A DNA stretch of 64,000 nucleotides from Actinomycetota bacterium. GTDB lineage: Bacteria; Actinomycetota; Actinomycetes; Nanopelagicales; Nanopelagicaceae. A model generated the notes under the pieces. The model saw only the letters and a program-made list of their open reading frames with translations. It was not told the DNA's origin and made no database searches. The stretch lies in contig WLKQ01000002.1 of assembly GCA_009701185.1 (NCBI GenBank), positions 17,979 through 81,978 of the forward strand. The letters run 5' to 3'. Of the stretch, positions 35,901 through 50,964 are shown in pieces. The translations under genes were made by a program, and so were the position numbers. How positions within the stretch are numbered: position 1 is the stretch's first letter; each line of letters starts with the position of its first letter.

Positions 35901-36052
35901 AAAAGCGTGCCGCAGAAGTTGGTGCATGGTTAAAGAAGACATGGCCAAACTTATCCATTAAGACAATGGGCCTAGGCACAACCTATAACCGCCTCTGCAA
36001 GCCATTTAAAAACCGATGCGCAATGATCAAGGTTGTTACTATTAAAAAGTAA
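32960..36052 (+). CDS. Large secreted surface protein: L-type lectin-like domain, Ig-like domains, four InlB-B/Listeria-Bacteroides repeats, IPT-like and OmpA-like C-terminal domain
   Basis: Signal peptide AQA; GADGISF and FGFSSSTGG lectin motifs; LPAGLSFD..TGVISGTP; repeated GY.F.GW...LTAQW; GYAS..GS..LN.KL..KRA. Confidence 0.8.
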   Translation: MKKISRILVLALLASLLTTVATLAPAQAAPGTLTENFTTSSLFNANNWVSTSSGDFGAHPCLSALNDSNPAITLSLGTTLPGCSSRPDTSGAGSLFLTSNDNQQAGTMLYNQALPTSGGLDISFYQAQYGGTGADGISFFVKDGSKTDLTVGQPGGNLGYKGIPGALFAVGFDSYGNWMNQGYGDGECTNNILGGVPKALAVRGPDTSDGKDGTSGFCILPGGFVAPNGAIGAEYFGTGSDTRESAARPVRILVDPSTNSNPKIRVYMWKSGSLTQDVNTAPIALTVDQPADYVQAGTFKFGFSSSTGGAKDIHAIWGLGIAPLIAESAPTIYVVPDDVTVRAGEAAIYTYKFYSDAAKTIEIAANTLSYPQNICGSAYTLSTNYPATLPITCTGAVAMYNTITADRAILTVVRGTPSIEPAMNTITGSSGTPITTTAAYTARNFLNIQDLRYTISPTLPAGLSFDATTGVISGTPISLSAGTYTVTAISSTESATASVIINIAAPLTYVYTIMYDKGAGTAGFLNAQRGTGSSVTLSAFSTSTMVKPGYTFRDWLGSDSLTYVDAQSITINGALNLTLTARWSTNPSRTVTYNAGAGTGIVPTQVDVLQGETFVVAVGTGLIQPGYTFAGWKDLAETAYAAGASYTAGVNNVILTAQWSVTSQNVTYVANGGTGVVPTQANVATGATFTVAANSGLTKAGYSFIGWKNAADTAYAAGATIIMGATNITLTAQWLINSYVYAVAFEANGGTGTMSGLTGSGSSVALSPNTFTRTGYSFLGWMDDTSMTYVDGQTLMLVSTTALALHAQWLQDKPVEPVLTDKITSIAPAKGFANDQIVITGEFNHVITSISIDGKLLPANSWTQTKTTVTFIAPTHDVGKVDIKLINGFTPELATQQFEYLKLDDIKIGIDDIKCLGTFDKACSLKPGAVQPVSFQLASNALSAKSIKTLKSWKLQNAKQVVVYGYASPEGSKALNDKLTKKRAAEVGAWLKKTWPNLSIKTMGLGTTYNRLCKPFKNRCAMIKVVTIKK

Positions 36053-36069
36053 GAAACCTAAAGTTAAAT

Positions 36070-36110
36070 TACAAAAGCCCCACAGAGATTATTCTGCGGG
36101 GCTTTTGTTC
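36070..36110 (+). terminator. Rho-independent terminator
   Basis: ACAAAAGCCCC..CAGA/TCTG..GGGGCTTTTGT hairpin. Confidence 0.78.
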
Positions 36111-36216
36111 TGTAACTCTTGGAAAGATCACTCTTTGACTAAGTGTTTGAAATCTAGCACTCATAACTTTATCCACAGCGAAAATCCCCTGAACCCCGCC
36201 AGCGGTGCACACCATA

Positions 36217-36256
36217 AGTAGCCCTTCGGTTAGTCGCGTGGGGCTACTTTTATTTT
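36217..36256 (+). terminator. Second terminator-like hairpin with no preceding CDS
   Basis: AAGTAGCCC...GGGCTACTT followed by TTATTTT. Confidence 0.6.
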
Positions 36257-36370
36257 CACCTGTGCCAAAGAGACATTTCTACTCCAGGCAGCATTCACAA
36301 TCGCTGGAAACATCGGAGTTTTGCGCGTTACCCTAGAAAATCCTGGGGAGAAATAGGTACAGTTTCGGCC

Positions 36371-37348
36371 ATGTCAGGCTCGACAATCGTCTCAATCCGT
36401 TCACTCAAGCGCAGCTTTGGGGACGTGCGCGCTGTAGATGGCATCGATTTAGATATTACGGAAGGGGAGTTCTTAACTCTTCTTGGACCCTCAGGCTCAG
36501 GCAAAACAACCGTGCTTCGCATGATCGCAGGATTCGAAAAGCCTGACTCGGGAACAATTACCTTGGCGGGTAAAGATGTTTCCCAACTTCCTCCTTATGA
36601 GCGAGATGTAAACACTGTATTTCAAGATTATGCGCTCTTTCCGCATATGGATGTATTAGCAAATATTGAATATGGATTAAGGGTCAAAGGCTTTGCAAAA
36701 CAAGAATGTCGATCACGAGCCCTAACTGCTCTGAAGCAAATTCGCCTCGAAGGGTACGAGAATAGAAAACCTGCACAGCTATCTGGTGGACAGCGTCAAC
36801 GCGTTGCACTTGCTCGAGCTCTCGTAAACCAACCCGCAGTTCTTTTGCTAGATGAACCATTAGGAGCTCTGGATTTAAAGTTGCGTGAGCAGATGCAAAT
36901 TGAGCTCAAGGCACTTCAGCGCGAAGTTGGAATTACTTTTGTATTTGTTACTCACGACCAAGAAGAAGCACTTTCCATGAGTGATCGAATCGCTGTTTTT
37001 AATCACGGCAAGATTGAGCAGATTGGAACTCCTCGGGAGATTTATGAGAATCCAAAAAGTGAATTTGTCTCCGAATTTGTAGGGCAGACTAATCGAATTG
37101 AATATGACGGTAAAAAAATTAACATAAGGCCTGAATTTGTCACAATCTCTCGTGCTAGTTCTACAGGTGGGCGTAGCGTTCAAGGAACACTGCGCGATGC
37201 GATTTTTGTTGGTGCATCTACTAGATATTTATTCGATACTTCCATCGGATTTCCTATGATTTCTACGCAATCAAATAACCAGTTAAAGGTGGGCGATGTC
37301 GTGACTCTGTCATGGCAAGAAGAGAAAGAATTCCTAGTTCAACAATGA
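36371..37348 (+). CDS. potA: Polyamine-type ABC transporter ATP-binding protein
   Basis: GPSGSGKT, VFQDYALFPH, LSGGQRQR, LDEPLGALD; leaderless TACAGT-7nt-ATG. Confidence 0.88.
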   Translation: MSGSTIVSIRSLKRSFGDVRAVDGIDLDITEGEFLTLLGPSGSGKTTVLRMIAGFEKPDSGTITLAGKDVSQLPPYERDVNTVFQDYALFPHMDVLANIEYGLRVKGFAKQECRSRALTALKQIRLEGYENRKPAQLSGGQRQRVALARALVNQPAVLLLDEPLGALDLKLREQMQIELKALQREVGITFVFVTHDQEEALSMSDRIAVFNHGKIEQIGTPREIYENPKSEFVSEFVGQTNRIEYDGKKINIRPEFVTISRASSTGGRSVQGTLRDAIFVGASTRYLFDTSIGFPMISTQSNNQLKVGDVVTLSWQEEKEFLVQQ

Positions 37349-37402
37349 ATTGGGGAGGCCATATTCAACCGCTGAATATGGATGATCAAGATGGAGGTAC
37401 AG

Positions 37403-38596
37403 ATGCATAGTAAGCGTCTGTTTTCACGTATAGCAGTTGCATCAGTAGCAGCGCTCATTCTGGCCGGATGTTCATCTAGCAATGATGAAGCATCAAGCAG
37501 TGGCGTACCTGATGTCCCAATGATGAATTCACTTGGCGCTGGGGAAGGCCAAGTAAATGTCGTGGCTTGGGCCGGATATGTAGAGAATGGTTCTACAGAT
37601 CCCAACGTTGACTGGGTAACTGGTTTTGAAAAAGAGACTGGCTGCAAAGTAAATGTTAAAAATGGAGCAACCTCAGATGACATGGTCGCCTTAATGAAGA
37701 CTGGCGAATATGACGTTGTCTCTGCATCTGGTGATGCATCACTCCGCTTGATTTATGGAGGAGACGTTGCCCCAGTCAATACTGAATTGATTCCAAACTA
37801 TGCAGATATTTTTGATAACTTAAAGCTCCAGCAATGGAACTCAGTTGATGGTGTTGCCTACGGTGTCCCACACGGCCGTGGAGCTAACTTACTGGCCTAT
37901 CGCACAGATATCGTCAAGCCTGCCCCAACATCATGGGGCGCAGTATTTGATGTCAATTCACCATATAAAGGAAAGATCACTGCATACGATTCACCAATCT
38001 ACATTGCAGATGCTGCGCTTTATTTGATGAAGACGCAACCAGATCTAGGAATTACATATCCATATGCTCTAGATCAAAAGCAATTCGATGCAGCTGTCGA
38101 ATTACTGAAAGCACAGAAGCCACTTATTGGCGAGTATTGGGGAGATTACCTCAAGCATGTTGCATCACTTAAATCAGGTGGAACTGTTCTTGGAACTACC
38201 TGGCAAGTTAATATCAACTTGGCAAAGGGTGAAGGCACCAAAGTTGAAGGCATCAAGCCAACTGAGGGTTCTACTGGATGGTCAGATACATGGATGATTT
38301 CATCAAAGGCCAAGAACCCAAACTGTGCTTATTTGTGGATGAATCACATTGCATCACCAGAGGCTAATGCCGGTGTTGCTGAGTGGTTTGGTGAAGCTCC
38401 ATCAAATGCTAAATCCTGCGATCTCACCGCTGATAAGAATCACTGCGCAACTTTCCATGCAGCAGATGATGCTTATTGGGATGATGTGTACTACTGGAAT
38501 ACACCAACTGAGGCGTGCCTTGATGGCCGCACAGATGCTACGTGCGTTCCATATGCTGAATGGGTCAAAGCTTGGTCCAGTCTGCGTAACTCATAA
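37403..38596 (+). CDS. Polyamine-type ABC substrate-binding lipoprotein (PotD/YdcS-like)
   Basis: Lipobox LAGC; AWAGY, SASGDAS, GWSDTWM; GGAGG RBS. Confidence 0.85.
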   Translation: MHSKRLFSRIAVASVAALILAGCSSSNDEASSSGVPDVPMMNSLGAGEGQVNVVAWAGYVENGSTDPNVDWVTGFEKETGCKVNVKNGATSDDMVALMKTGEYDVVSASGDASLRLIYGGDVAPVNTELIPNYADIFDNLKLQQWNSVDGVAYGVPHGRGANLLAYRTDIVKPAPTSWGAVFDVNSPYKGKITAYDSPIYIADAALYLMKTQPDLGITYPYALDQKQFDAAVELLKAQKPLIGEYWGDYLKHVASLKSGGTVLGTTWQVNINLAKGEGTKVEGIKPTEGSTGWSDTWMISSKAKNPNCAYLWMNHIASPEANAGVAEWFGEAPSNAKSCDLTADKNHCATFHAADDAYWDDVYYWNTPTEACLDGRTDATCVPYAEWVKAWSSLRNS

Positions 38597-38600
38597 GTAA

Positions 38601-38642
38601 ATAAGCCGGGCGCAGTCACAACTGCGCCCGGTTTATCTTTTT
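38601..38642 (+). terminator. Intra-operon hairpin/terminator after the binding-protein gene
   Basis: ATAAGCCGGGCGCAGT-caca-ACTGCGCCCGGTTTAT followed by a T-run. Confidence 0.75.
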
Positions 38643-38655
38643 GAAAGGGGGAGCT

Positions 38656-39516
38656 ATGTTGCAAGAAATCTCAAACACAATGCATAAGAAGCCAAAACTT
38701 CGACTTGTAGCTCTTCTTACTGCGCCAATTTTGTGGCTCGTAGTTGCTTACTTAGGCGCGCTTGCAACCTTACTTGTTGCAGCATTTTTTACGATTGATT
38801 CATTTACTGGCAATGTTATTCAAACATTTAATTTAGGAAATTTCCACGACATGTTTACCGATGCTGCATACAAAAATGTCGTATTACGCACTGTGGGGAT
38901 AGCCCTTCTCGTAACAGTGGTGTGCACGGTTCTGGCAATACCTATGGCCTTTTACATGGCAAAGATTGCAAAGCCACGCTCTCAAAAGATTTTGGTTGCA
39001 CTCATACTTACCCCACTCTGGGCCTCATATTTAGTCAAGATTTATGCATGGCGAACAATGCTAGAGCCAGGCAATGGTGTTCTTGACTGGTTACTTGGTC
39101 CGCTTGGATTTTCATCACCTGGCTTTGGTGGCCCGGCAATTATTATTGGTCTTTCCTACCTATGGCTGCCCTACATGATTCTGCCTATTTACGCCGGGCT
39201 TGAACGACTACCAAATAATCTTCTTGATGCATCCGGTGATTTAGGGGCTCACAATTGGCACACATTTCGTCGGATCGTATTACCTCTAATTTTCCCAAGT
39301 CTTGTTGCAGGTTCAATGTTTACATTCTCACTCAGCCTAGGTGATTACATCACCGCCACAATTATTGGTGGAAAATTACAGATGCTTGGTAACGTGGTTT
39401 ATCAGAATTTCAGCATTAATCTGCCCTTTGCTGCCACCATTGCAACGATTCCAGTAACAATTATGGCAATCTATTTATGGATGGTGCGCCGTACCGGAGC
39501 ACTTGCGAGCCTGTAA
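38656..39516 (+). CDS. Polyamine-type ABC permease (PotB-like)
   Basis: PLWASYLVK, LPYMILP, DASGDLGA. Confidence 0.87.
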   Translation: MLQEISNTMHKKPKLRLVALLTAPILWLVVAYLGALATLLVAAFFTIDSFTGNVIQTFNLGNFHDMFTDAAYKNVVLRTVGIALLVTVVCTVLAIPMAFYMAKIAKPRSQKILVALILTPLWASYLVKIYAWRTMLEPGNGVLDWLLGPLGFSSPGFGGPAIIIGLSYLWLPYMILPIYAGLERLPNNLLDASGDLGAHNWHTFRRIVLPLIFPSLVAGSMFTFSLSLGDYITATIIGGKLQMLGNVVYQNFSINLPFAATIATIPVTIMAIYLWMVRRTGALASL

Positions 39517-40322
39517 TGACAATCTCACGAAATGCACGGCTCATACTTGCCGCCTTATTGGGAGTAGGTCTTGCATTTATCTATGTGCCATTAACCGTTG
39601 TTGTTATCAACTCATTTAACTCCAGCCGCACATTTAGTTGGCCACCTTCAGAGCTGACAACTAAATGGTGGGCTAAGGCCATTGAAAACACTGGAGTACG
39701 CGAAGCTCTGAAGTGGTCGATCTTGGCTGGACTATCTGCTACCGCCATTGCACTGCTACTGGGAACGGCGCTTGCTTTTGCCGTGAGTAGATATGATTTT
39801 TTTGGCAGGGAAGTAATTTCACTACTAGTAGTTCTTCCTATCTCTCTACCAGGAGTTGTAACAGGTATTGCATTAAATAACGCATTTACAAAGCAGCTTG
39901 GAATGTCGACCGGATTACTTACAGTCGTTATTGGTCATGCCACATTTTGTATCGTTGTTGTTTACAACAATGCTGTAGCTCGACTCAGACGCATGGGAAC
40001 TTCATTACAAGAAGCCTCAATGGATTTAGGCGCTAATGGCATTACAACCTTTAGGTTAATCACTCTGCCAAACATGGCTTCGGCTCTATTTGCAGGTGGC
40101 TTGCTTGCATTTGGACTCTCTTTCGATGAAATTGTCGTTACAACATTTACCGCCGGTCCAGGAATCCAGACGCTACCCATTTGGATTTATAACAACTTAT
40201 TCCGACCAAACCAAGCGCCTATTGTTAATGTGGTTGCAGCGACCTTGGTCTTTTTATCTATAGTTCCGATTTATCTGTCGCAGCGCCTCAGTAGTGATAG
40301 TTCAACTGGTGGTCGATTCTAA
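39516..40322 (+). CDS. Polyamine-type ABC permease (PotC-like)
   Basis: EASMDLGA, LSFDE, TLPIWI. Confidence 0.87.
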   Translation: MTISRNARLILAALLGVGLAFIYVPLTVVVINSFNSSRTFSWPPSELTTKWWAKAIENTGVREALKWSILAGLSATAIALLLGTALAFAVSRYDFFGREVISLLVVLPISLPGVVTGIALNNAFTKQLGMSTGLLTVVIGHATFCIVVVYNNAVARLRRMGTSLQEASMDLGANGITTFRLITLPNMASALFAGGLLAFGLSFDEIVVTTFTAGPGIQTLPIWIYNNLFRPNQAPIVNVVAATLVFLSIVPIYLSQRLSSDSSTGGRF

Positions 40323-40451
40323 GCAGCACTTTGGATTTTTTCTGGGCGCGTTGAGAGGGTGGGAGCTTCGTGGGTGGAGCTCCACTGAGAAAACTGAAAA
40401 TTCATGCATGCATCGTTATCAACTTGTTATAGGAATCCTGGATTATGGGTA

Positions 40452-40494
40452 TTGCCAAGGGGTTTAAGGCTCCCTATTATTTGAACGTTCAAAT
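40452..40494 (+). promoter_or_regulatory. Sigma70-type promoter (TTGCCA-17-TATTAT) overlapped by LacI-type operator ATTTGAACGTTCAAAT
   Basis: Perfect 16-bp palindrome with central CG at 40479-40494, adjoining the -10 box. Confidence 0.75.
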
Positions 40495-40516
40495 TACTTG
40501 AGAATAAGGGGAAAGT

Positions 40517-41737
40517 ATGAAAAAGGCTCCAATAGGGGTGTCATTACTGGCACTTGCATTAACTCTTTCACTCGTGCCGCAGGCTCGTGCTGCCGAAGCT
40601 GTCACCACAATTTCTGTTTCTACGTGGGGTTCATCCCCATCGGAGACTTCAGCACTAAAAGATGCTGTCGCGACCTTTGAATCACGAAACCCAAGCATCA
40701 AAGTGGATCTGATTGTCGATAACGACCATGGCGCACAGATGGCCGCTCGTTTCGCCTCAAAGACTCCTAACGATGTCTTTTATCTAGATGCTGGCGTTGC
40801 ACAGGATTGGGCGGCGCAAGGTGTGCTTCTTGATCTCATGCCTTCAATCACAACTGCGAAATTTAATTTAACTAAATTCAACGCAAGTTACCTAAAGCCT
40901 TTCCAAAGTGGAGCAAAGCTATTTGGTCTACCAAAGGATGCAAACCCACTAGTTCTAGAGGGAAATAAGGATCTGATGGCAACTGCAGGAATTACTGCAC
41001 TTCCAAAGACAACATCACAGTTTGCATCACACGCTAAAGCGCTACTTGCAAAAGGTATAACTCCAATGTGCGTTGATGCTGATATCAATCGCCTCGGTGC
41101 ATACTTTGTTGCATTCGGTGGTGGCTTAGCATCTTCTACAAACAAATCATTGCTTTCTTCAGCTACATCTAAGGCTGGGCTTGAGTGGGCTATGACTAAT
41201 TATAAGAGTGGTGCCTTCAAGACTCCGGCACAACTTTCAGCTGGCTGGGCTGGCGAAGCTTTCGGTAAGGCAAAGTGTGCTTACACGATGGAAGGCGCAT
41301 GGCTTGATCCATACCTAAAGGACTCTTTCCCAGATGTTTACGACTCAATGATTAAGGGTCCACTACCAACTGCTAAACAAGCTGGATCACTTGCATTCAC
41401 TGCTGCTTATGCAATTGGTAAGGATTCACCACATCCAAAAGAGGCTTGGACCTTCATTGAATACATGACAGGTGCTCGTGGAATGACTGTCTGGACTTCA
41501 TTTGGTGTTGCAATTCCATCTCGTTCAGATGTTGCAACTCCACTTGGTTATGAAGTCAATGGAACTGTGGCAAAGCTTGCAACGACAGTTACAACTCCAG
41601 CATTTAAGGGTTGGGGCGATGTAGTTGGTGCATTCAATAATGAAGCTAAGAAGCAGATACAGGACAAGAACTTCAATGTTAAAAAAGCAGCAGCAGCTAT
41701 TATTGCCGCCGCAGAAGCCGCTTGGCCAAAGGGATAA
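40517..41737 (+). CDS. Carbohydrate ABC substrate-binding protein
   Basis: Signal peptide ARA/A; DVFY, FGLPKD, AYTMEGAW. Confidence 0.87.
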   Translation: MKKAPIGVSLLALALTLSLVPQARAAEAVTTISVSTWGSSPSETSALKDAVATFESRNPSIKVDLIVDNDHGAQMAARFASKTPNDVFYLDAGVAQDWAAQGVLLDLMPSITTAKFNLTKFNASYLKPFQSGAKLFGLPKDANPLVLEGNKDLMATAGITALPKTTSQFASHAKALLAKGITPMCVDADINRLGAYFVAFGGGLASSTNKSLLSSATSKAGLEWAMTNYKSGAFKTPAQLSAGWAGEAFGKAKCAYTMEGAWLDPYLKDSFPDVYDSMIKGPLPTAKQAGSLAFTAAYAIGKDSPHPKEAWTFIEYMTGARGMTVWTSFGVAIPSRSDVATPLGYEVNGTVAKLATTVTTPAFKGWGDVVGAFNNEAKKQIQDKNFNVKKAAAAIIAAAEAAWPKG

Positions 41738-41750
41738 TCCACATAGACAA

Positions 41751-41847
41751 GCCTTGATTCAGGTACCTAAATCGCCTGAGTCAAGGCAAATCTAGACAAG
41801 AGTAAGAGTTGATTCCGCCAAAGAGTTGGAATCAACTCTTACTCTTA
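41751..41847 (+). other. Two consecutive intergenic hairpins
   Basis: GCCTTGATTCAGG/CCTGAGTCAAGGC and AAGAGTAAGAGTTGATTCC/GGAATCAACTCTTACTCTT. Confidence 0.7.
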
Positions 41848-41890
41848 GCCTTTGTACCACCATTATAAATGACCAAGAGAAGGGAAGGTT

Positions 41891-42823
41891 ATGACATCAA
41901 CTAGTCACAGAACCTCCCGACTCGGTCGAAAAAGATCAGAGTCTTTGGTGGCCTATGGTTTCATTTCAATTCCTATGGCGCTTTTTCTTTTTCTAAGCGT
42001 GGGTATCTTTATTTATGCAGTCTATATCTCAACATTCGACTGGGGCATTATGGGTCCTACCAAAAATATAGGACTTGATAATTACCGCAAAGCTTTTTCT
42101 GATCCAATATTCTTAAAGGCAATAAGAAACTCAGTTAAATATGCGCTGCTAGTGGTTCCAATTCAAAGTGCGATAGGACTGTATCTGGCATTGCTGGTCA
42201 ATTCGAAGATTAAGGGAAGTAAGTTTTTTCGTTCAGCTTTCTACTTTCCTTCAATAGCAAGTAGCGCAGCAATCACCACACTCTTTATCTTTCTTATGGC
42301 ACCGGATGGTGTATTCAATGGGGTTTTAAGATTCTTTGGGGTAGATACAGCCAATCTCTTTAATCAAGGTGCTTGGTTATCCGACTCGAGGACTGCGCTG
42401 TACTCCATAATTGGTTTGAATGCGTGGACAACCAGCGGAACAATGATGCTTTTCTATCTTGCTAATTTGCAAACCGTCGATTCTCAATTTGCTGAAGCAG
42501 CAGTAATGGATGGTGCCACCAGGAGACAGGTCTTTTGGTACATCACAATGCCGCTGTTAAAGCCAGCCCATCTTTTTGTAGTTGCAACCGGAATGATTGG
42601 CGCCTTGCAACTCTATGATCAAGCAATTTTGGCGGGTGGCGCCGATGGCAGCCCTGACTATTCTTTGATGACCGTAGTTCTCTATATTTACAATGCCTGC
42701 TTTAGAAAATTTGAGTTTGGGTATGCAAGTGCTATCGGTGTAATTCTCTTTGTAATCATCTTTTCTCTTACCGTTCTTCAGAAGTCACTTTTCGGTTCTG
42801 CAGCGTGGAAAGGGGATAATTGA
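41891..42823 (+). CDS. Carbohydrate ABC transporter permease
   Basis: FRSAFYFP, EAAVMDGA, FGYASA. Confidence 0.9.
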   Translation: MTSTSHRTSRLGRKRSESLVAYGFISIPMALFLFLSVGIFIYAVYISTFDWGIMGPTKNIGLDNYRKAFSDPIFLKAIRNSVKYALLVVPIQSAIGLYLALLVNSKIKGSKFFRSAFYFPSIASSAAITTLFIFLMAPDGVFNGVLRFFGVDTANLFNQGAWLSDSRTALYSIIGLNAWTTSGTMMLFYLANLQTVDSQFAEAAVMDGATRRQVFWYITMPLLKPAHLFVVATGMIGALQLYDQAILAGGADGSPDYSLMTVVLYIYNACFRKFEFGYASAIGVILFVIIFSLTVLQKSLFGSAAWKGDN

Positions 42824-43653
42824 TGAGTAAAGTGCGCAAATATAGCTTCTATTCCCTTTTGATCTTCTATTCAATCTTGACCATTGTTCCTTTTCTCTGG
42901 TCTCTTAGTACATCTTTTAAACCTTCAGATGAGGTTTATCAGAGCAACTTAATACCCGATCAACCGACGATGAAGGCGTATGCGACGGTATTTGGCAAAA
43001 TTCAACCAAATTTTCAAACGCTTTTTGCGAACTCTCTCTTTATAGCCTGTGGAGTCGTGGTTCTGCACTTAATTTTTGCGGCATTAGCCGGATATGCCTT
43101 TGCTCGCCTTAGGTTCCCAGGTCGCGATGTTCTATTTTTTGTCGTTCTAGGCTGCATGATGATTCCCGATCAACTGCGTCTAGTTCCAATGTACCAATTG
43201 CTTGTGAAGATGGGTCTCATCAATACCGGCCCTAGTAATTATTTGGCCATCTTTCTCATCAAAGCTATCAGCGCCGCCGATGTTTTTCTTATGCGCCAAT
43301 ATTTCCTGACTATGCCCAAGGAGATGGAAGATGCGGCCAAAATTGATGGAGCAGGACCGTTCCAGCTTTTCACGCGAGTGATGCTGCCTAATGCTGCTCC
43401 AGTTTTGGCGACGGTAGCGATTTTAACTTTCCAGGGAACCTGGAATGACTTGTTCTGGCCTTCCATTGTTTTGCAAAGTCCATCCCATTGGACACTTCCA
43501 TTTGGAATTCTGCAGTTTAAAGGCCAATTCTCGACAGACTGGCCCCCCATAATGGCGTTAGTTGTTCTCTCCACCGTTCCCATCCTTGCCCTCTACACAT
43601 TCGGACAGCGCTACATCATCAATGTTCAACTCGCATCGTCGGCGAAGGGTTGA
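42823..43653 (+). CDS. Carbohydrate ABC transporter permease
   Basis: GYAFARLRFPGR, DAAKIDGA, WNDLFWP. Confidence 0.9.
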   Translation: MSKVRKYSFYSLLIFYSILTIVPFLWSLSTSFKPSDEVYQSNLIPDQPTMKAYATVFGKIQPNFQTLFANSLFIACGVVVLHLIFAALAGYAFARLRFPGRDVLFFVVLGCMMIPDQLRLVPMYQLLVKMGLINTGPSNYLAIFLIKAISAADVFLMRQYFLTMPKEMEDAAKIDGAGPFQLFTRVMLPNAAPVLATVAILTFQGTWNDLFWPSIVLQSPSHWTLPFGILQFKGQFSTDWPPIMALVVLSTVPILALYTFGQRYIINVQLASSAKG

Positions 43654-44315
43654 GTATGAACACTTTTAAAGACCGCAGAGTGTCATCGGTATTTCGTGAA
43701 GCGCTAGGCCAGGTGTGGGATTTACATGTTAAAGCGATCCCTACCGCAATGATATGGGCTATTTCGCTGATGTTTATTTTTCAGAGCCCTAGCTTGCTCA
43801 TTAAGCTCATCTGTTCAATCATATGCTCGGTAATTTCATTAATTAATGCTGCTATGGTCAATTTTTCGACCCCAAGAGTCACGCTACGGAAGCTAGTAAA
43901 AACATCGGAGTTTCAAAGGATCTTGTTACTTAACATTTTGTTGGGAATCTTATTTGTTATTGCTCTCAATAATGCGATTAATATGATTCCGACGCCAATG
44001 TGGCTATCACTTATTATTATGTCAATCGTTCCCTCACTGTTGATGTTATGGATGGGAATGATGATTGTATTTAATCCCATATTCATTATGAATACAGCTA
44101 CTGAGAGTTCAAAAACGGCTTCAGAAATGTTTTTCTATTATTTAAAGAGTGAAAAGAGAGTGATTGCATTGACTTTCTTTATCATACTTGCACTTGCACC
44201 TTTAATTTTTCTCTTTATATGCATCGCCCTCACATTATCGCAGGCTCTTACAGTCAGAAACTTTCAGGAGCTCAACTCAACATTTACAAGTAAGGTAGAT
44301 ATTCATAATGGATGA
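43650..44315 (+). CDS. Hypothetical multi-pass membrane protein
   Basis: About 5 hydrophobic segments; coupled to neighbouring genes. Confidence 0.6.
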   Translation: MSMNTFKDRRVSSVFREALGQVWDLHVKAIPTAMIWAISLMFIFQSPSLLIKLICSIICSVISLINAAMVNFSTPRVTLRKLVKTSEFQRILLLNILLGILFVIALNNAINMIPTPMWLSLIIMSIVPSLLMLWMGMMIVFNPIFIMNTATESSKTASEMFFYYLKSEKRVIALTFFIILALAPLIFLFICIALTLSQALTVRNFQELNSTFTSKVDIHNG

Positions 44316-45696
44316 GTTGAAGACTGGTGAAAAAACAGTTAATTATGAAGTCATTTTAGAAGACAATGACCCGGCTTTAAACCCGGCTAATAGGCCACAT
44401 ATAGATCAAGCCGTTGAGATGATTCTGGGCAAAGCCCATGGTTTTGAAGTCCCATTTGCCGCAGTACCTTTGAAAGAGCACAAGAATTTACCCGAACAGA
44501 ATCTTTACAGTTGCCTTTTTGGACGAGATTCATTGCTGATTGCAGATCTACTTTTCAACGTTAAGCCACATTTGCGGATGAATGTTATTCAGGCCCTAGC
44601 ACTCGTTCAAGGCTCCACGGTTGATTCCAAAAGTGAAGAGGAGCCGGGACGAATCGCCCACGAAGTGAGAACTATTGATGATCCAGTAGCGCGCAAGCTT
44701 CAAGATGAAGGCGATTGGAAGTTCCCTTATTATGGTTCGGTTGATGCAACCTTGATTTGGATGAAACAGGTTTCTAAGGCCGCAGAAGCCGATCCCTCGA
44801 TTCTAGACATCATGGTTGGTGGTCTTGCTCTGTGGGAGCGATTTATTGCCTCTACACAGTGGCTCGTCACACGTCTTGATACATCATCTGGTTTCATCGA
44901 ATCATCTCGATCAAATCCCAAAGGCATCGCCAATCAAATGTGGAAGGACTCTGGTGATTCCTACATGCATGCCAATGGAGTTCTCGCTCGTGGTGACTCA
45001 ACAGCATCTGTTGAAACTGTAGGCGAGACGTATGATGCAATTCTTGCGGCGAAGGCAGTTCAGTTGTTGAAACCGAGTACGAAGTGGCCACTGTCAACCT
45101 CTGAACTCTCTAAATTAGCGCGACATGTGCAGCTCTCTTTAATCGGACATTTTTGGATGGGAGATAGTTTTGCTCTGGGTCTTGAGCGATCTCCCGATGG
45201 TGGAGTGACCAAATTTGAATCCTTAGCCAGCAACCAAGGTCGACTTTTAGATTCAGGTGTCATTTCCGGCGATGAATTTAGTCAATACCGTGAGGCGATT
45301 GCCACAGCTATGACAGATAGTTCAATGTTAGGCGATAGTGGCTTGCGCACACTTGCACGCAGTCATGTTTCTTACCGCCCTGGGGGCTATCACACAGGTT
45401 CGGCATGGCCATTCGATGGAGTCTTAACGGCTCGCGGACTTCTAAAGCATGGTTTCATAAAGGAATCCCAGCAAGTGCAAGCTAGAATCAAAAATGCAAT
45501 TGAATCTTCAGGGGGATACCCGGAGTTTTTCCGAGGAGATTGGCCCGAGAAGGATTTAATTAACCGTTTTATTCAGGATGTACAATTTGATGATGAAAGC
45601 GGAGTGCGTGCGCATACAAATCGAATTGCACAGCCACCTCAAATTATCCAAGGCTGGACCGTTGCGGCCTATTCGTGGCTTACTAGTAGAGGTTGA
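44308..45696 (+). CDS. Amylo-alpha-1,6-glucosidase-like six-hairpin glycosidase (paralog of 30342-31751)
   Basis: LFGRDSLL, EEEPGRIAHE, YYGSVDAT, WKDSGDS, YHTGSAWP. Confidence 0.8.
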   Translation: MDELKTGEKTVNYEVILEDNDPALNPANRPHIDQAVEMILGKAHGFEVPFAAVPLKEHKNLPEQNLYSCLFGRDSLLIADLLFNVKPHLRMNVIQALALVQGSTVDSKSEEEPGRIAHEVRTIDDPVARKLQDEGDWKFPYYGSVDATLIWMKQVSKAAEADPSILDIMVGGLALWERFIASTQWLVTRLDTSSGFIESSRSNPKGIANQMWKDSGDSYMHANGVLARGDSTASVETVGETYDAILAAKAVQLLKPSTKWPLSTSELSKLARHVQLSLIGHFWMGDSFALGLERSPDGGVTKFESLASNQGRLLDSGVISGDEFSQYREAIATAMTDSSMLGDSGLRTLARSHVSYRPGGYHTGSAWPFDGVLTARGLLKHGFIKESQQVQARIKNAIESSGGYPEFFRGDWPEKDLINRFIQDVQFDDESGVRAHTNRIAQPPQIIQGWTVAAYSWLTSRG

Positions 45697-45735
45697 TTGC
45701 ACTCTAATCAAAAAATTAGAGGCGAGTAATAAATA

Positions 45736-46815
45736 ATGGATAAGTCAAGAGCCTCTATTGTTTCAGTTGCAAAAGCAGCTGGTGTCTCACTGCAGACCGT
45801 TTCAAATGTACTTAACTTTCCGGAAAGAGTTCGCCCAGAAACCCGCGATAAAGTAATGCAAGCAATTGAGAAGCTGGATTACACACCAAATTTATCGGCT
45901 CGCCGTTTACGGTCTAATCGATCGTCCTCTATCGCTGTACGCGTTGACTCAAATGCTCCTATGGGAAAGGGCTCAGACGCTCTCTATTCAGGCTACATTC
46001 AAGATGAATTCGTGTACGAACTTGTGCGGGCTTGCGAGATTCGCAGTATTAAGGTTTTTACATATACATGCGAGCCAGATGAAAATGAAGTAGAAAAGCT
46101 ATCAAAACTCATCGATTCACGAGATGTTGATGGTTTTCTTTTAACTTCCACAGTAGAAGCTGATCCACGTTTAAAATACCTATTAAGTAGAAATGTCCCA
46201 TTCTTGAGCTTTGGACGACCGTGGGGCAGTACGCCCGAATTTGCTAATTCATATCCCTGGATCGATGTTGATGGTGCTAGTGGAACAAGAGATGCAACAA
46301 AGATGTTTTGGAAGCTAGGTCATCGAACAATTGGATTCCTAGGTTGGAAAACTACTAATTCAAATCCTGCTAAACCTAAAAGTGTTGCCGATGACCGTTT
46401 ACTGGGTTGGTCGCATGCATATGCTGAACTGACGGGCCTTAAGTCGAAAAAATCCAGCCGTGACTTGTGTGAATTGGGAGATGAATCTATTGCCAGTGCA
46501 CGTGTGTCAACAGCTAAGTTATTAGCTCGCCACCCTGAAATCGACGCCATTGTCTGCGCCAGTGACACATTGGCACTAGGCGCTCAAATGGAAATTTCAA
46601 GATTAAAGAAATCAATTCCAGTCTCTGGTTTTGATAATAGCCCTACATCTAAAGCTTTTAATTTCTCATCGTTAGATCAAAATATTTCTGAAGTTGCATC
46701 TCTGGCCTTAAAGGTCTTGATGGGCGAAGAGGGACATTCGATTAAGAAACTCAATCCACCTAACCAAGTAAGTGAACCTAATTTGATTATTCCCCCTAGA
46801 TTGATTATCCGCTGA
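45736..46815 (+). CDS. LacI-family transcriptional regulator
   Basis: VAKAAGVSLQTVSNVLN HTH; YTPN, AIVCASD, GFDN. Confidence 0.9.
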   Translation: MDKSRASIVSVAKAAGVSLQTVSNVLNFPERVRPETRDKVMQAIEKLDYTPNLSARRLRSNRSSSIAVRVDSNAPMGKGSDALYSGYIQDEFVYELVRACEIRSIKVFTYTCEPDENEVEKLSKLIDSRDVDGFLLTSTVEADPRLKYLLSRNVPFLSFGRPWGSTPEFANSYPWIDVDGASGTRDATKMFWKLGHRTIGFLGWKTTNSNPAKPKSVADDRLLGWSHAYAELTGLKSKKSSRDLCELGDESIASARVSTAKLLARHPEIDAIVCASDTLALGAQMEISRLKKSIPVSGFDNSPTSKAFNFSSLDQNISEVASLALKVLMGEEGHSIKKLNPPNQVSEPNLIIPPRLIIR

Positions 46816-46853
46816 TTGGGAATTACTCTGTTCAGTGGACTAATTCCCAATCA
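46813..46853. terminator. Bidirectional terminator-like hairpin
   Basis: TGATTGGGAATTA...TAATTCCCAATCA between convergent genes. Confidence 0.65.
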
Positions 46854-46878
46854 CTGAGCGAATATTTCCTTTAAGTAT

Positions 46879-47202
46879 TTAGATACTTGCCATATGGTGA
46901 AGTAGTCCGCCTGTTTTGAACTTCAGTGCTGGAGTCTTAGACCAGACATCCATAGCGTCATCAAAGCTCTTTGAATTTGCATGGAACTTATCGAGTGATG
47001 CGCCAAATGCCTGAGCATTGTCGAATTCGATTGCAAATAACCACGTTCCGTTGAACTCGCCGTATCCGCCTTCCCACACCTTTACATCTTTAGCACCCTC
47101 TGCAAGAAATAGCTTCTTCCATTCACCTAGGCGTGCCATTTGCTGACGTCGAGTTGTTCCCTCAACACCCTCACAGATCCATATTTCATTTGTTGTTGCC
47201 AT
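46879..47202 (-). CDS. Small hypothetical protein, possibly dimeric alpha/beta-barrel (NIPSNAP-like)
   Basis: ATG 47202 after GGAGAG; alternating beta/alpha pattern. Confidence 0.6.
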   Translation of the reverse strand: MATTNEIWICEGVEGTTRRQQMARLGEWKKLFLAEGAKDVKVWEGGYGEFNGTWLFAIEFDNAQAFGASLDKFHANSKSFDDAMDVWSKTPALKFKTGGLLHHMASI

Positions 47203-47344
47203 AGTTATATCTCCTCCGTGCCGAGTTTCGGCTTTTTGCAACGTACTCGCATAGTCAGGTCATTACAATAGAAATGACCTGTCAGTGTTGAGGGTGCACA
47301 TCTCACAGGCTCAGAGTGAATGATCCTGATCTCTATCCGATGAA

Positions 47345-48046
47345 CTAAGCAGGTGTTACCGGGGGAGCAGCGATTGCAGAAGGCAATACGAGCTCGGGTT
47401 TAACTGGCTCATCTCCTGCTAAATCTTGTAAAACTTTGTCAACGGTTGTAATGACGCTCTCAAGCCCATTTTCAGCGGCATCAATTGCTTGAGCTAAGAA
47501 TCTATTGAACTCGCGGCCAACGCTGACATCAAATAAAATTCCCGATGTTTTCTGACGATTGCTGACATTAAATATGTAATCACTCTCATCTTCTGAAGTC
47601 GCTGCACCATTCCACTTAGCAAAGGCCCACTCTTTGGTGTTATACATTCCATTAAACATAATGCGATCGGTGGAGAGCACAACATCGCCGACTTCTTTAT
47701 ATGCCTGTATTGCATCCCCGGGCACAAATGTTCCACGCATAGCGCCAACTCGATATCGAATTCCGGCAACAATTGGAATGCTTAAACCCTGACTACCTCC
47801 AACATATTGACCAGGTGTTCTACCTGCTTCATGAAACTGTCCGCGCCCACTCCAGATAACAATCTCTCCAGGTTTTTGCACCGCTAAATTAGAGACCGCA
47901 TCTTCACCCTTAATCGCGCTCTCAAAGGCCGCCTTTATCTTGTTAAAGATCTCGATATCACCAGCCCACTTAGCGTGCTGATACTCATAGTCACTCAACG
48001 CGCTCTTGAACGCCTTTTTAGCTTTTCGATCTGCCCAAAATCCCAT
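47345..48046 (-). CDS. Hypothetical protein
   Basis: Long ORF with leaderless start 6 nt after the -10 box of a TGTCGG-N10 promoter. Confidence 0.7.
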   Translation of the reverse strand: MGFWADRKAKKAFKSALSDYEYQHAKWAGDIEIFNKIKAAFESAIKGEDAVSNLAVQKPGEIVIWSGRGQFHEAGRTPGQYVGGSQGLSIPIVAGIRYRVGAMRGTFVPGDAIQAYKEVGDVVLSTDRIMFNGMYNTKEWAFAKWNGAATSEDESDYIFNVSNRQKTSGILFDVSVGREFNRFLAQAIDAAENGLESVITTVDKVLQDLAGDEPVKPELVLPSAIAAPPVTPA

Positions 48047-48052
48047 GGCCAT

Positions 48053-48074
48053 AGTCTGCTCCTAACCACCGACA
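48053..48074 (-). promoter_or_regulatory. RecA-NDp/PafBC-type promoter TGTCGG-N10-CAGACT
   Basis: Motif geometry matches; one deviation in the -10 (C for T); ATG 6 nt downstream. Confidence 0.55.
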
Positions 48075-48087
48075 TTGTCAGTTACTC
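48065..48087 (+). repeat. 23-bp direct repeat copy 1, ACCACCGACATTGTCAGTTACTC
   Basis: Identical to 48763-48785. Confidence 0.9.
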
Positions 48088-48095
48088 GAGTACAG

Positions 48096-48371
48096 CTACT
48101 TCTTTTTTAAGTCACGGTAAAAGTTTTCATGCGGCCCGATAAGCAGAAGCTTGAGACTTCCCACAGAAACAAAGCGATAGGCCAGAAGCCACTCTTGACG
48201 GTTAATGATGAACTTATAAACGTAGATACCTTCTAGGTCGGCAGCTTTAGCATCTCCAAGAAGGGGATTTGCAACCAACTGATTCAATGCCTTATCTAAT
48301 GAAGCCTTTTGATTCTTATGAAGCTTCTTTACCTGGCGAGCAAAAGTCGGTGTAAGTAGTAACTCCATCAC
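48096..48371 (-). CDS. Type II toxin, RelE/ParE family
   Basis: TPTFARQVKKL, GDAK..DL.GIYVYKF, LLAY, GPHENFYRDLK. Confidence 0.88.
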   Translation of the reverse strand: MMELLLTPTFARQVKKLHKNQKASLDKALNQLVANPLLGDAKAADLEGIYVYKFIINRQEWLLAYRFVSVGSLKLLLIGPHENFYRDLKKK

Positions 48372-48577
48372 CCGAATGCGTAGTGGCCAGCAGCGGTCTC
48401 AGCATCACTCTTTAAAATCTCTTTAATCAGAGCGAAGGAGAGATCAGGATTAGCCTCAGCAATGGCAGCGATTTTGAAATAGAACTCAATCTGCTTCGGA
48501 ATCGATCTGTGCTCGATCGCGGCAATTCGTCCTGCCGCCTGAACAAGATCATCTGAAAGCTTTACATTTGTTGCCAT
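48368..48577 (-). CDS. ParD-like (ribbon-helix-helix) antitoxin
   Basis: VKLSDDLV...HRSIPKQIE....IAEANPDL; 4-nt overlap with the toxin start. Confidence 0.82.
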   Translation of the reverse strand: MATNVKLSDDLVQAAGRIAAIEHRSIPKQIEFYFKIAAIAEANPDLSFALIKEILKSDAETAAGHYAFG

Positions 48578-48762
48578 GGTCAGAACCCCTTTGAGTTGCC
48601 ACACCATATCAGTAAAAGTATCTAAAAGTAACCTTTTGCCACCATAGCCCCAACCCACCAAATCCTTGATCTTCATCTATCCTCTTTTCACTTAGGCTCT
48701 GAATTTAATAGTTAGGGACTGACAGAAAAGCAAACTAATCCACAGCTTTCAATAATTCGCGT

Positions 48763-48785
48763 ACCACCGACATTGTCAGTTACTC
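48763..48785 (+). repeat. 23-bp direct repeat copy 2
   Basis: Identical to 48065-48087. Confidence 0.9.
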
Positions 48786-48795
48786 ACAGTAGTTT
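48774..48795 (+). promoter_or_regulatory. RecA-NDp/PafBC-type promoter TGTCAG-N10-TAGTTT
   Basis: Exact motif geometry; ATG 48802 lies 6 nt after the -10 box. Confidence 0.7.
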
Positions 48796-48801
48796 GATCG
48801 C

Positions 48802-49197
48802 ATGTTCGAGACCATATTTTTCGCAACCCTGATCTTCCTCTTTCTTAACCGCAACAAAAAGAGGCGCAGACCACGAGGCCTCGATGCAGAGCTCAAAGAG
48901 CTCGTTGAAAACTCCAACGATGCAACTGGTATTGGCCTTGAGATTAAGCGCCTGTTACTAGATGTAATCAACGATGACAAGAATGACCTTGAGAAGTTCT
49001 CTGATATACGCCTTGCCCAAGCTCAGCACATATTAGATAGAGCAGGTCCAGGGGCTTTGTATTGGATGAGTGAGATTGCAGGCCAGTTAGCCACACTGTC
49101 GGCTGCACAGATAAATGGAATTCCTACCAACGTCAATGCCGAACTGCGCGATGGCGCAACACCAGAAGACATTGTTCGAATAGTTGTCAGGCCCTAG
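48802..49197 (+). CDS. Hypothetical protein with N-terminal membrane anchor
   Basis: Hydrophobic N-terminus followed by a basic stretch; leaderless. Confidence 0.7.
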   Translation: MFETIFFATLIFLFLNRNKKRRRPRGLDAELKELVENSNDATGIGLEIKRLLLDVINDDKNDLEKFSDIRLAQAQHILDRAGPGALYWMSEIAGQLATLSAAQINGIPTNVNAELRDGATPEDIVRIVVRP

Positions 49198-49207
49198 CTA
49201 CCTCTTG

Positions 49208-49972
49208 TTAAGAAGGAATCAGAGTATTGGCAAAAATCTGCCAAGCAAGGGCTGATTTAGCTATCAAAGAGAGGGTTATGTAGGTTCGCTCTCCACGGAT
49301 GTAATCACTCCACTTTCCAACCTTCTTGTACTGCAACCATTGCACAAGGGCAAAGGAGTTAAAGAAGACAAAGATTGTAAAGACGATTCCGTAAACAAAT
49401 GCCGGCGCTGAAGTATCACTGACTCCACCGATAGAAAAGACATAAAACAAAAGTACTAGCCAAGGAACAACTCCCGCGATGCAACCAAAGATAAATGGAA
49501 GCCATCCGCCATTACCAGGTGTCTCATATTTTTCCTGTAGCCAACCAAATAAAATCATCGATGCATTCACGCCAAAGATCGAGATGATTGATGAAATCTC
49601 TGCAACGCCTGTGACTTGTGCGATCAATACAATCATTACAGATGAGCTAATCGCATACTCGACCCAGCGGAAGTAATTTCTCTGGGCTGCAATACCTGCG
49701 CTATAGCGGCCAAAGAACTGCGGGCTTGCGACAATAAAATGAGCCAAAGCCGATAAGCCTAAGAAAATCGCTACCGTTAAACCGACTGGTGTTGAGAACA
49801 AAACGACAGGAGCTGCAAAGCTAGATCCTGGCGGACCCGACATATAGGTTGCAGTGATTGGTAGTGCAAAGTCATTACTCAATGCCAGAACGGCAATCAT
49901 TTGCGCTAGATGCAGCGTTCCGGCCAGCACATTAGTTCTACGAAGACTTTGGGTTGTAATCGGTTTTCTCAT
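49208..49972 (-). CDS. heR: Heliorhodopsin
   Basis: HLAQ in TM1, NYFRWVEYAISSSVM, LFGWLQE, GERTYITLSLIAKSALAWQ with the retinal-binding Lys. Confidence 0.93.
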   Translation of the reverse strand: MRKPITTQSLRRTNVLAGTLHLAQMIAVLALSNDFALPITATYMSGPPGSSFAAPVVLFSTPVGLTVAIFLGLSALAHFIVASPQFFGRYSAGIAAQRNYFRWVEYAISSSVMIVLIAQVTGVAEISSIISIFGVNASMILFGWLQEKYETPGNGGWLPFIFGCIAGVVPWLVLLFYVFSIGGVSDTSAPAFVYGIVFTIFVFFNSFALVQWLQYKKVGKWSDYIRGERTYITLSLIAKSALAWQIFANTLIPS

Positions 49973-50062
49973 AGTCCAAGCCTAGCCGCCCCATAATAAA
50001 ACCGCCTTGGCTCACCAAATTTTCACCGAGAAAGTTCGCATGGCCTGCGCTAACTTTGCGCC

Positions 50063-50233
50063 ATGCTCGGAGGAATCAATAACGGACTTTATTTCCAAGG
50101 CTTTGGCGGATTTATCGGTGTAGCCATCCTTGCGCTCATTCTTAAGTGGATATTTCCCACTAAAAAAGATCCGCTAGCCAAAGCCGAACGCAAAGCCATG
50201 AAAGCATCACTGCGCCAACTGCGGCGTAAGTAA
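50063..50233 (+). CDS. 56-aa single-TM protein (not in ORF track)
   Basis: MLGGINNGLYFQGFGGFIGVAILALILKWIFPTKKDPLAKAERKAMKASLRQLRRK; TAACTT-6nt-ATG. Confidence 0.65.
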   Translation: MLGGINNGLYFQGFGGFIGVAILALILKWIFPTKKDPLAKAERKAMKASLRQLRRK

Positions 50234-50247
50234 GCGCAGCTATCTCC

Positions 50248-50964
50248 ATGTCACTCGTCGTAGTTACCGGTGGATCTCGAGGCCTTGGTTTTGAAACCGC
50301 TAAAGCACTAAAAGCACTAGGCCATGACATCGTCTTAGTTGCTAAAGACAGCGCCCGCCTTGCCCAGGCTGCAGCCGAACTTGAGTGTGATTTTCGAAGC
50401 GTTGACTTAGAAGATATCGACGCCGCTAAGAAATGCTTCGATGAAATCTTAGAAACCTTTGGAACACCAGAGATACTGATCATTGCCCATGCAGTGATGA
50501 GTGCAAAGATGTCAAAGACTCTTAAAACCGATAATGCAGAGTGGCGCAGAGTGATGGCGATAAATTTAGATTCAGTATTTTGTGCACTCAACATATTGGC
50601 CGCACCTATGGCAGCAGCGCGCAGTGGCCGAGTAATTGTCTTCTCTGCATGTTTGGGTCGCATGTCTGGACCCGGCAACACTGGGGGATTAGCGCCTTAC
50701 AGAGTCAGTAAAGCTGGCGTCAACGCACTCGTTCGAAACCTGGCACATGAGACTGGATTAGGCAGCCGCGGTTTCATAATCGATGCACTGTGCCCAAATC
50801 ATTCACGCACCGATATGGGCGGTCCCGATGCACCTTTATCTGCCGAAGATGGTGCACGCACAGCAATCTGGCTAGCAACTCGCGAGTTCGATGTTAACGG
50901 CGCAACTGATCAAGAGAAGTTAACGGGACTCTTGTGGGAAGAGATGAAAGTCGTACCCTGGTGA
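50248..50964 (+). CDS. Short-chain dehydrogenase/reductase
   Basis: TGGSRGLG, YRVSK, RTDMGG. Confidence 0.88.
   Translation: MSLVVVTGGSRGLGFETAKALKALGHDIVLVAKDSARLAQAAAELECDFRSVDLEDIDAAKKCFDEILETFGTPEILIIAHAVMSAKMSKTLKTDNAEWRRVMAINLDSVFCALNILAAPMAAARSGRVIVFSACLGRMSGPGNTGGLAPYRVSKAGVNALVRNLAHETGLGSRGFIIDALCPNHSRTDMGGPDAPLSAEDGARTAIWLATREFDVNGATDQEKLTGLLWEEMKVVPW

Follow-up and report, generated by a model that had tools for sequence, protein, structure and literature searches.

Introduction

Restriction-modification gene units are said to insert with a long target duplication, as reported by Nobusato et al. in 2000. For such insertions of restriction-modification units, an operational threshold of >30 bp was applied to the length of the duplication (Furuta, Abe and Kobayashi 2010, PMC2853133). 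Insertion with long target duplication is also the closest described phenomenon for the locus analysed here, which lies in a stretch of 64,000 nucleotides (hereafter the window; positions 17,979 to 81,978 of the forward strand of contig WLKQ01000002.1, assembly GCA_009701185.1) from an Actinomycetota bacterium of the family Nanopelagicaceae. A small cassette with a toxin-antitoxin (TA) gene pair is found there between two identical 23-bp direct repeats, each of them a candidate bidirectional promoter core. The reading that we favour, with moderate confidence, is that of an indel polymorphism of a parDE-type cassette, where the promoter-core repeats are the substrates of ordinary recombination and no dedicated recombinase or cassette system takes part. 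As in the restriction-modification insertions, the unit is of the addiction type and has no mobility gene, its repeat is unique in the genome, both copies align to a single one in empty genomes, and its presence or absence varies among close relatives. The structural features are therefore those of insertion with long target duplication, with a repeat of 23 bp that falls below the >30-bp length. On the other hand, the cargo is here a type II TA pair, the repeat looks like a bidirectional promoter core, and the same site appears to have undergone repeated exchange across lineages.

Other well-known systems share some of these features. Islands integrated by a Campbell-type reaction at an attachment (att) site also have identical cores at either end of the insert, only one core when empty and hybrid copies of it (here in the genome G409), but the present locus has no integrase, no arm-type sites and no tRNA target, and its core is explained as promoter boxes. 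Integron cassettes are likewise small and largely promoter-dependent units, often TA pairs, which are gained and lost at a defined place. They end in an attC site, made of imperfect inverted repeats of 57-141 bp, and have intI and attI alongside, whereas neither intI, attI, a structured attC (R''/L''/L'/R' boxes) nor an array is seen here, and the cassette brings its own upstream region. The pdif modules of Acinetobacter plasmids are also small, often of the TA kind, devoid of an internal recombinase and bounded by short conserved sites. Their 28-bp XerC/XerD sites (11-6-11) alternate in orientation and are usually inverted, in contrast to the direct 23-bp repeats of this locus, which have a single-base centre and no resemblance to the candidate dif site of the same genome (C42:9710). 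As for the repeat itself, the RecA-NDp/PafBC promoters of mycobacteria (PMC5656591, PMC6789036) offer the same arrangement of a TGTCRG(tg) box, an 8-nt gap and a TAnnnT -10 element, with repair genes downstream and a pair of WYL-domain genes; unlike them, however, this locus has two boxes back to back, 1 bp apart, in front of two divergent and presumably leaderless genes of a streamlined freshwater actinobacterium. Mobile elements are very scarce in these bacteria, whose gene content nevertheless differs within small islands. The locus is a base-resolved example of a selfish two-gene module gained and lost without a mobility gene, whose homology anchor would be a short, selectively conserved regulatory sequence that can be duplicated with both neighbouring promoters spared.

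A cassette between direct repeats, with empty and filled alleles

The source assembly (G000; 1.38 Mb in 84 contigs, 88.6% complete) carries the 23-bp direct repeat ACCACCGACATTGTCAGTTACTC in two exact copies, at 48065-48087 and at 48763-48785, between the divergent genes that we call g235 (left) and g131 (right). Identity between the copies breaks off sharply at 23 bp on both sides. They enclose a cassette of 675 bp, with a repeat-to-repeat spacing of 698 bp, and the initial annotation was correct in placing a ParD-like/RelE-type pair between identical repeats, since the 23-mer is exact on both sides and the genes matched ParE-like and ParD-like families. No third match with up to three mismatches occurs in the window, none of 100 shuffled sequences gave any, and the search for further copies that had been recommended retrieved in the entire assembly the same two and nothing else. 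Moreover, no other similar pair with these boxes brackets any unit in the genome, where the remaining short-range exact repeats are tandem or coding ones.

Four metagenome contigs were found to carry the 23-mer (L043, L044, L045 and L046). In three of them (L043, L045 and L046) the site is empty and holds one 23-mer: the alignment of the left flank to the window ends at 48087, that of the right flank begins at 48763, and the two have exactly 23 bp in common, with flanks 93-96% identical to the window. Removal of the 698-bp unit, which had been predicted to restore a single promoter region, yields the exact sequence of these natural contigs, so that the lack of an empty allele in relatives, named beforehand as fatal to the proposal, did not materialize. 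In G021, from a more distant species, the g235 and g131 homologues are adjacent, divergent and 64 bp apart. The site is filled in G409, G410 and L044, where both the 698-bp spacing and the junction sequences agree with those of G000, and G035 has a fragment of a filled allele of the L044 type. Among 299 genomes of the genus, cassettes at least 90% identical were detected only at this site and only in G000, G409, G410 and G035. The TA pair is therefore a true presence/absence polymorphism with precise empty alleles.

A graph loop of the assembler at the shared 23-mer could in principle produce such a picture, and the 84 contigs of the assembly, together with the G035 contigs that break around the locus, might be quoted in its favour. 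The filled form, with sequence divergence, is however present in four independent assemblies and the empty form in three, which rules out the artefact that the initial annotation had advanced as its second possible refutation (G409, G410 and L044 being decisive), and leaves it a negligible probability.

In the complete genome G029, 6.5 kb of unrelated genes separate the homologues of g131 and g235 (L093, G029:C1:888500-897500). They include those of a Liv-type ABC transporter, of an enzyme of the histone-deacetylase family and of a methyltransferase, and no repeats bracket them. What occupies the gap therefore varies, yet cargo other than the TA pair makes no use of the core, and the expectation of different cargo between such repeats at this site was not borne out. 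Bracketing repeats were also absent around the more distant TA homologues located elsewhere in G024, G008 and G011, and the viral contigs contained neither the 23-mer nor a close relative of the toxin (best 54% amino acid identity). Two further leads were discarded: a degenerate and shortened pattern with matches in 64 of the 299 genomes corresponds to a conserved coding motif (..PPTMSVA..) of an unrelated gene, and a match with three mismatches in G395 has unrelated flanks.

Age and transfer of the cassette

Compared with G000 over 19 kb of the genome core, G409 is 86% identical and its cassette 96.6% at the nucleotide level, G410 is 77-80% identical and its cassette 92.4%, and G464, which carries an older allele described below, is 77-78% identical with a cassette of 78%, equal in this case to the core value. 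The flanking genes of G409 and G410 show 85-90% and 69-76% identity to those of G000, respectively. The 185-bp non-coding region upstream of the TA genes is 90-95% identical, and differences at four-fold degenerate sites amount to 0.13-0.19 in the TA genes versus 0.24-0.72 in the flanking ones. Such a low divergence at four-fold and non-coding positions indicates that selection at the protein level does not explain the youth of the cassette. In addition, the topologies are in conflict. The g235 protein of G464 shares 85% of its amino acids with that of G000 versus 83% for G410, and g131 81% versus 76%, so the flanks of G464 are about as near to G000 as those of G410 or nearer, whereas its cassette is far more distant (84% amino acid identity for the toxin versus 96% in G410). 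A cassette younger than its hosts, together with this conflict, implies that the G000-type cassette crossed between species-level lineages at least two times, with identical junctions each time.

A close-up view of the tract ends points to the repeats themselves. Between G000 and G409, mismatches crowd the alignment as far as 48028, become sparse over 48029-48780 and crowd it again from 48781, the 19th position of the right repeat. In keeping with this, G409 matches the first 18 nt of that repeat and switches there to a sequence of its own (TCGCCG), and its left repeat is the full 23-mer with TTACTC on the cassette side. Across the four filled genomes, the half of each repeat that adjoins the cassette tracks the lineage of the cassette (T/T in G000 and G409 and C/A in G410 and L044, for position 19 on the left and position 11 on the right), the outer halves varying with the host. 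This pattern fits the product of crossovers inside the core, be it a single crossover of a circle or a double-crossover import of linear DNA. Within each genome, moreover, the two copies agree in their central base (T,T or A,A). Of the idea that conserved promoter motifs act as recombination sites with integron- or dif-like behaviour, the first half stands, since the tracts end at or within the repeats and the core looks like the substrate of gain and loss; the second is not supported, only one site and one cargo having been found and no features of attC or dif.

The age of the cassette bears directly on a purely vertical history, where an ancient insertion was followed by losses only, the empty alleles are deletions between the repeats, and selection on the TA pair or homogenisation among filled alleles mimics youth. 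It is well known that the sequence between direct repeats like these (23 bp, 698 bp apart) can be deleted, the site of G464 was already occupied at about 78% core identity with a cassette and a core whose divergence agree, and the locus belongs to a mosaic, recombining island. We nevertheless regard this history as unlikely, though worth keeping in mind: divergence at the four-fold sites and in the 185-bp non-coding leader is lower than in flanks and core by a factor of 2-4, the topologies of cassette and flanks conflict, and the G000-type repeats are perfect even though those of G464 have decayed. Near-identical cassettes in hosts of very different core divergence are also seen in part, and homogenisation among filled alleles would itself be horizontal exchange.

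The repeat as a candidate bidirectional promoter core

The left neighbour, g235, spans 47345-48046 on the minus strand and encodes 233 aa from an ATG at 48046, a start fixed by G410 and G021, both devoid of an in-frame ATG upstream. The right one, g131 (48802-49197, plus strand), encodes 131 aa with an N-terminal hydrophobic stretch. Neither protein gave a family match in Pfam, NCBIfam or PADLOC. The consensus of the RecA-NDp promoter is tTGTCRgtg, 8 nt and TAnnnT (PMC5656591), and PafBC acts through this motif (PMC6789036). On the right side of the locus, the succession of TGTCAGtt, 8 nt, the hexamer TAGTTT (48790-48795, plus strand), 6 nt and the ATG at 48802 fits the consensus and is an exact match in a scan for TGTCRG-N10-TAnnnT. 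On the minus strand, TGTCGGTG is followed after 8 nt by the -10-like hexamer CAGACT (48053-48058), with a C at its first position, and after another 6 nt by the ATG at 48046. Both hexamers and both 6-nt gaps are kept in all filled and empty alleles, and the -10 of g131 also in G464. The 23-mer consists then of two RecA-NDp-type boxes back to back, 1 bp apart, which contain the motifs named in the initial annotation (TGTCAG rightward at 48774-48779, and TGTCGG leftward as the reverse complement of CCGACA), and would be the core of a divergent promoter region of 51 bp driving two leaderless genes. That annotation is also upheld on the consequence for the neighbours: with a core on both sides of the cassette, each of them retains one box and its own -10. 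In the left copy (48065-48087) the leftward box at 48067-48074 serves g235, and the rightward TGTCAG at 48076-48081 faces the end of the toxin gene with no -10 behind. In the right copy (48763-48785) the rightward box serves g131, and the leftward one (48765-48772) faces the TA operon, with a conserved ATTATT 8 nt beyond.

A scan of the own genome for TGTCRG-N10-nAnnnT with an open reading frame downstream gave 32 matches, nine of which lie exactly 6-7 nt from the start codon. Apart from g235 and g131, genes with this short gap encode RmuC, a PD-(D/E)XK nuclease, DnaB, a UPF0102 protein and a DnaQ-like exonuclease; recA and a DUF6504 gene also lie behind the motif, 24 and 39 nt from the first in-frame start. 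The motif-bearing genes are found on contigs C24, C34, C35, C37, C58, C80 and C23, and an adjacent pair of WYL-domain genes, like pafB/pafC, is present on contig C42 (C42:1682-2816). The raw genome-wide count of the strict motif is not enriched (16 versus 16 in the reversed control), so the support for it is positional and functional, that is, the short gap and the repair genes. Altogether, the 23-mer is probably a bidirectional promoter core of the RecA-NDp/PafBC type, which may respond to DNA damage, and the data suggest a PafBC-type DNA-damage regulon in a streamlined freshwater actinobacterium, with a ParDE-type module and two putatively leaderless genes of no known family behind promoters of this kind. 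A former interpretation of CCGACA/CTGACA as interdigitated -35 boxes with 17-nt spacers was dropped in view of the RecA-NDp consensus and the genome-wide check of the motif.

An older allele and the possible origin of the insertion

In G464 the gap between g235 and g131 contains, in this order, a terminator-like hairpin, a tRNA gene, a second terminator hairpin and the TA pair. Decayed 23-mers are found at both ends, each with 17 of 23 positions conserved and with 14/23 between them, a value reached by 76 of 2000 shuffles. The left copy keeps the leftward box and has lost TGTCAG, and the right copy keeps TGTCAG and has lost the leftward box, which looks like the subfunctionalisation of an old duplication: each copy has aged to the half that its neighbour needs. 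The decay of these repeats indicates that the perfect ones of the G000-type alleles were re-formed recently.

The second hairpin of G464, complete and abutting the toxin gene, also has a complete homologue in the window at 36226-36257. Of this hairpin, the G000-type cassette retains the 3' half as its left end (GCGTGGGGCTAC... in L044), at 48088-48108 of the window, with the toxin stop codon inside. A toxin end made of half a tRNA terminator suggests that the unit was cut from a tRNA-terminator-TA context. Moreover, the left junction falls at the loop of this hairpin, CAGTTCGTC, which resembles the end of the 23-mer, CAGTTACTC, and would fit an illegitimate junction mediated by microhomology. 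Non-homologous end joining is an unlikely origin, since no Ku gene was detected in the assembly (88.6% complete).

The junctions also bear on a non-autonomous, transposon-like element, mobilised in trans and leaving a 23-bp target-site duplication, which would explain direct target repeats around an insert that encodes no recombinase itself. A duplication of 23 bp is far longer than those known for target sites. Insertion sequences and miniature inverted-repeat transposable elements have terminal inverted repeats, short duplications and multiple copies, but this cassette is single-copy, its relatives at 90% identity or above are confined to this site, and neither terminal inverted repeats nor an attC-like structure were found in it, its ends being a truncated terminator hairpin and plain promoter DNA. 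In G409, furthermore, the hybrid copies share only 18 nt, and their difference resembles the trace of a crossover more than that of a staggered cut. Such an element is accordingly very improbable.

The segment 36070-36257 of G000 holds both terminator hairpins with only the last ~13 nt of the tRNA between them, the tRNA being intact in G464 and L046. These hairpins border on the left a 10.6-kb block (36258-46870) with two sugar ABC transporters, a glycoside hydrolase (GH)-like enzyme and LacI, which is absent from G410 and much shorter in L046; the region 36070-46870 looks like a flexible island beside a decayed tRNA. The tRNA genes of G464 (L094 3349-3423) and L046 (3581-3655) share acceptor, D and T arms and have entirely different anticodon arms. 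ARAGORN assigned the first to Ser-CGA and its L046 homologue to Val-GAC; the call of a 75-nt serine tRNA is doubtful, and the G464 gene may be remodelled or a pseudo-tRNA. A likeness of the 23-mer to the anticodon arm of the G464 tRNA was not significant, as 378 of 1000 shuffles reach it, and Rfam gave no match in 35500-50500.

Proposed recombination without dedicated machinery

No integrase or transposase is adjacent to the locus, as originally stated, and none was found within about 12 kb. The 12 kb to its left contain two sugar ABC transporters, a glycoside hydrolase and LacI and no mobility gene, and the other neighbours, a heliorhodopsin gene among them, include no integron integrase. The assembly encodes a single tyrosine recombinase, on another contig (C18).

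The history that we favour, an indel polymorphism maintained by ordinary recombination, would have begun with a one-off insertion with target duplication through an illegitimate junction, from a tRNA-terminator-TA context as still seen in G464. The insertion would have been retained because the core was duplicated on both sides, each neighbour keeping a box and a -10 and both leaderless promoters remaining complete. The two 23-bp copies and a few conserved promoter bases would then serve as substrates: recombination or replication slippage between the copies would lead to loss, with an exact single-copy site, and crossing over in an empty core, by a linear filled allele or by an excised 698-bp circle with one copy, would lead to gain. 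In this manner the cassette may have spread among species-level lineages of the genus with junctions that are always alike. Short-homology recombination of this sort accounts for the data without a dedicated system.

Several points count against this history. At 23 bp the repeat does not exceed, and may fall short of, the homology that RecA usually requires for efficient recombination, and flank identities of 70-86% should hinder import by homologous recombination; short repeat and low identity thus leave room for a catalysed reaction. G464 and the G000-type genomes disagree on where the tRNA/terminator block lies with respect to g235, and none of the alleles examined corresponded to the source allele that we postulate (tRNA-terminator-TA-core-g131 without g235). 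Promoter function and PafBC control are, for their part, deduced from motifs, and the shared central base concerns one site, for which chance agreement is ~6% by a rough estimate, and is suggestive only.

The room left for catalysis would be occupied by a dedicated site-specific cassette, with the 23-bp core or the 13-bp near-palindrome CCGACA-T-TGTCAG as an att-like site, and with a recombinase encoded elsewhere or a DNA-binding host factor that excises the 698-bp circle and reinserts it into empty cores. Identical direct repeats are what integration at an att core leaves behind. The same junctions recur across lineages of 80-86% core identity with a tract end inside the repeat, the two copies share the central base within each genome, and perfect repeats go with the recently exchanged form, decayed ones with the old form of G464. 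All the same, we judge such a system improbable: it would have one site and one type of cargo, with no further copy in the genome nor off-locus in the 299 genomes of the genus, the single tyrosine recombinase lies on another contig of an assembly that is 88.6% complete, and the 23-mer is unlike the candidate dif, with a 1-bp centre instead of a 6-8-bp spacer and no attC-like structure. In addition, its sequence is wholly accounted for as two promoter boxes. A related and no less doubtful conjecture is that the PafBC-type boxes double as the attachment site of a recombinase-free 698-bp mobile element, moved by a host factor, possibly during the DNA-damage response. If the recombination were catalysed and not driven by homology, this would be a new kind of mobile cassette, and a promoter that doubles as attachment site would define a new class of cassettes spreading addiction modules between species with the neighbouring genes undisturbed.

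The TA genes and their leader

The cassette encodes on the minus strand a ParE-like toxin of the RelE/ParE superfamily (48096-48371, 90-91 aa; PF15781, E=1.3e-30, 105.6 bits with a cut-off of 28), which also gives a weak RelE_StbE match, and a ParD-like antitoxin (48368-48577, 69 aa from the ATG at 48577; PF11903, E=6.5e-11). The antitoxin gene lies directly upstream of the toxin gene in one operon, its stop overlapping the toxin start at 48368-48371, and the toxin stop codon (48096-48098) is 8 nt from the left repeat copy. From its sequence, the pair is most readily classified as a type II TA system with a ParE/RelE-superfamily toxin and a ParD-like antitoxin. An alternative in-frame start of the antitoxin at 48676 would give 102 aa, with the PF11903 match at residues 37-92 of the long form; in an alignment of TA homologues of the genus, this start and its ribosome-binding site are kept in eight homologues.

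The upstream region of the TA operon (48578-48762, minus strand), which is part of the cassette, contains, by the same eight-homologue alignment, a conserved TGTCAG box at 48719-48724 on the minus strand, with an 11/14 match to the g131 promoter, a conserved ATCCACA element at about 48739-48745 and a conserved AAAAG-TAAC-CTTTT stem-loop at 48624-48637. The leader (48578-48745) is conserved at the nucleotide level across the eight homologues, whose overall identity is only 72-80%; this may reflect the translation of 33 extra codons, or else an operator or RNA element.

Variation in the neighbourhood

The 5' part of g235 (47954-48028) is sharply mosaic, with one allele in G000, G410, L044 and L043 (G000 and G410 being identical over 48006-47) and another, which differs at about 40% of positions, in G409, L045, L046 and G035; this distribution is at odds with the overall relatedness of the genomes. 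Contig C71 of G035 is 94% identical to the window, versus 76-82% for the core contigs of the same genome, and ends at the mosaic boundary (~48027), and its contig C124 is of the L044 type. Either the G035 bin is mixed or the region was recently imported.

Downstream of g131, the heliorhodopsin gene (49208-49972) shows a presence/absence polymorphism of its own, as L043, L045 and L046 jump from 49204 to 50016. No comparable long direct repeat was found at the junction of this indel. TA homologues of the genus often adjoin heliorhodopsin genes, as seen in G464, G024, G388, G461 and G445.

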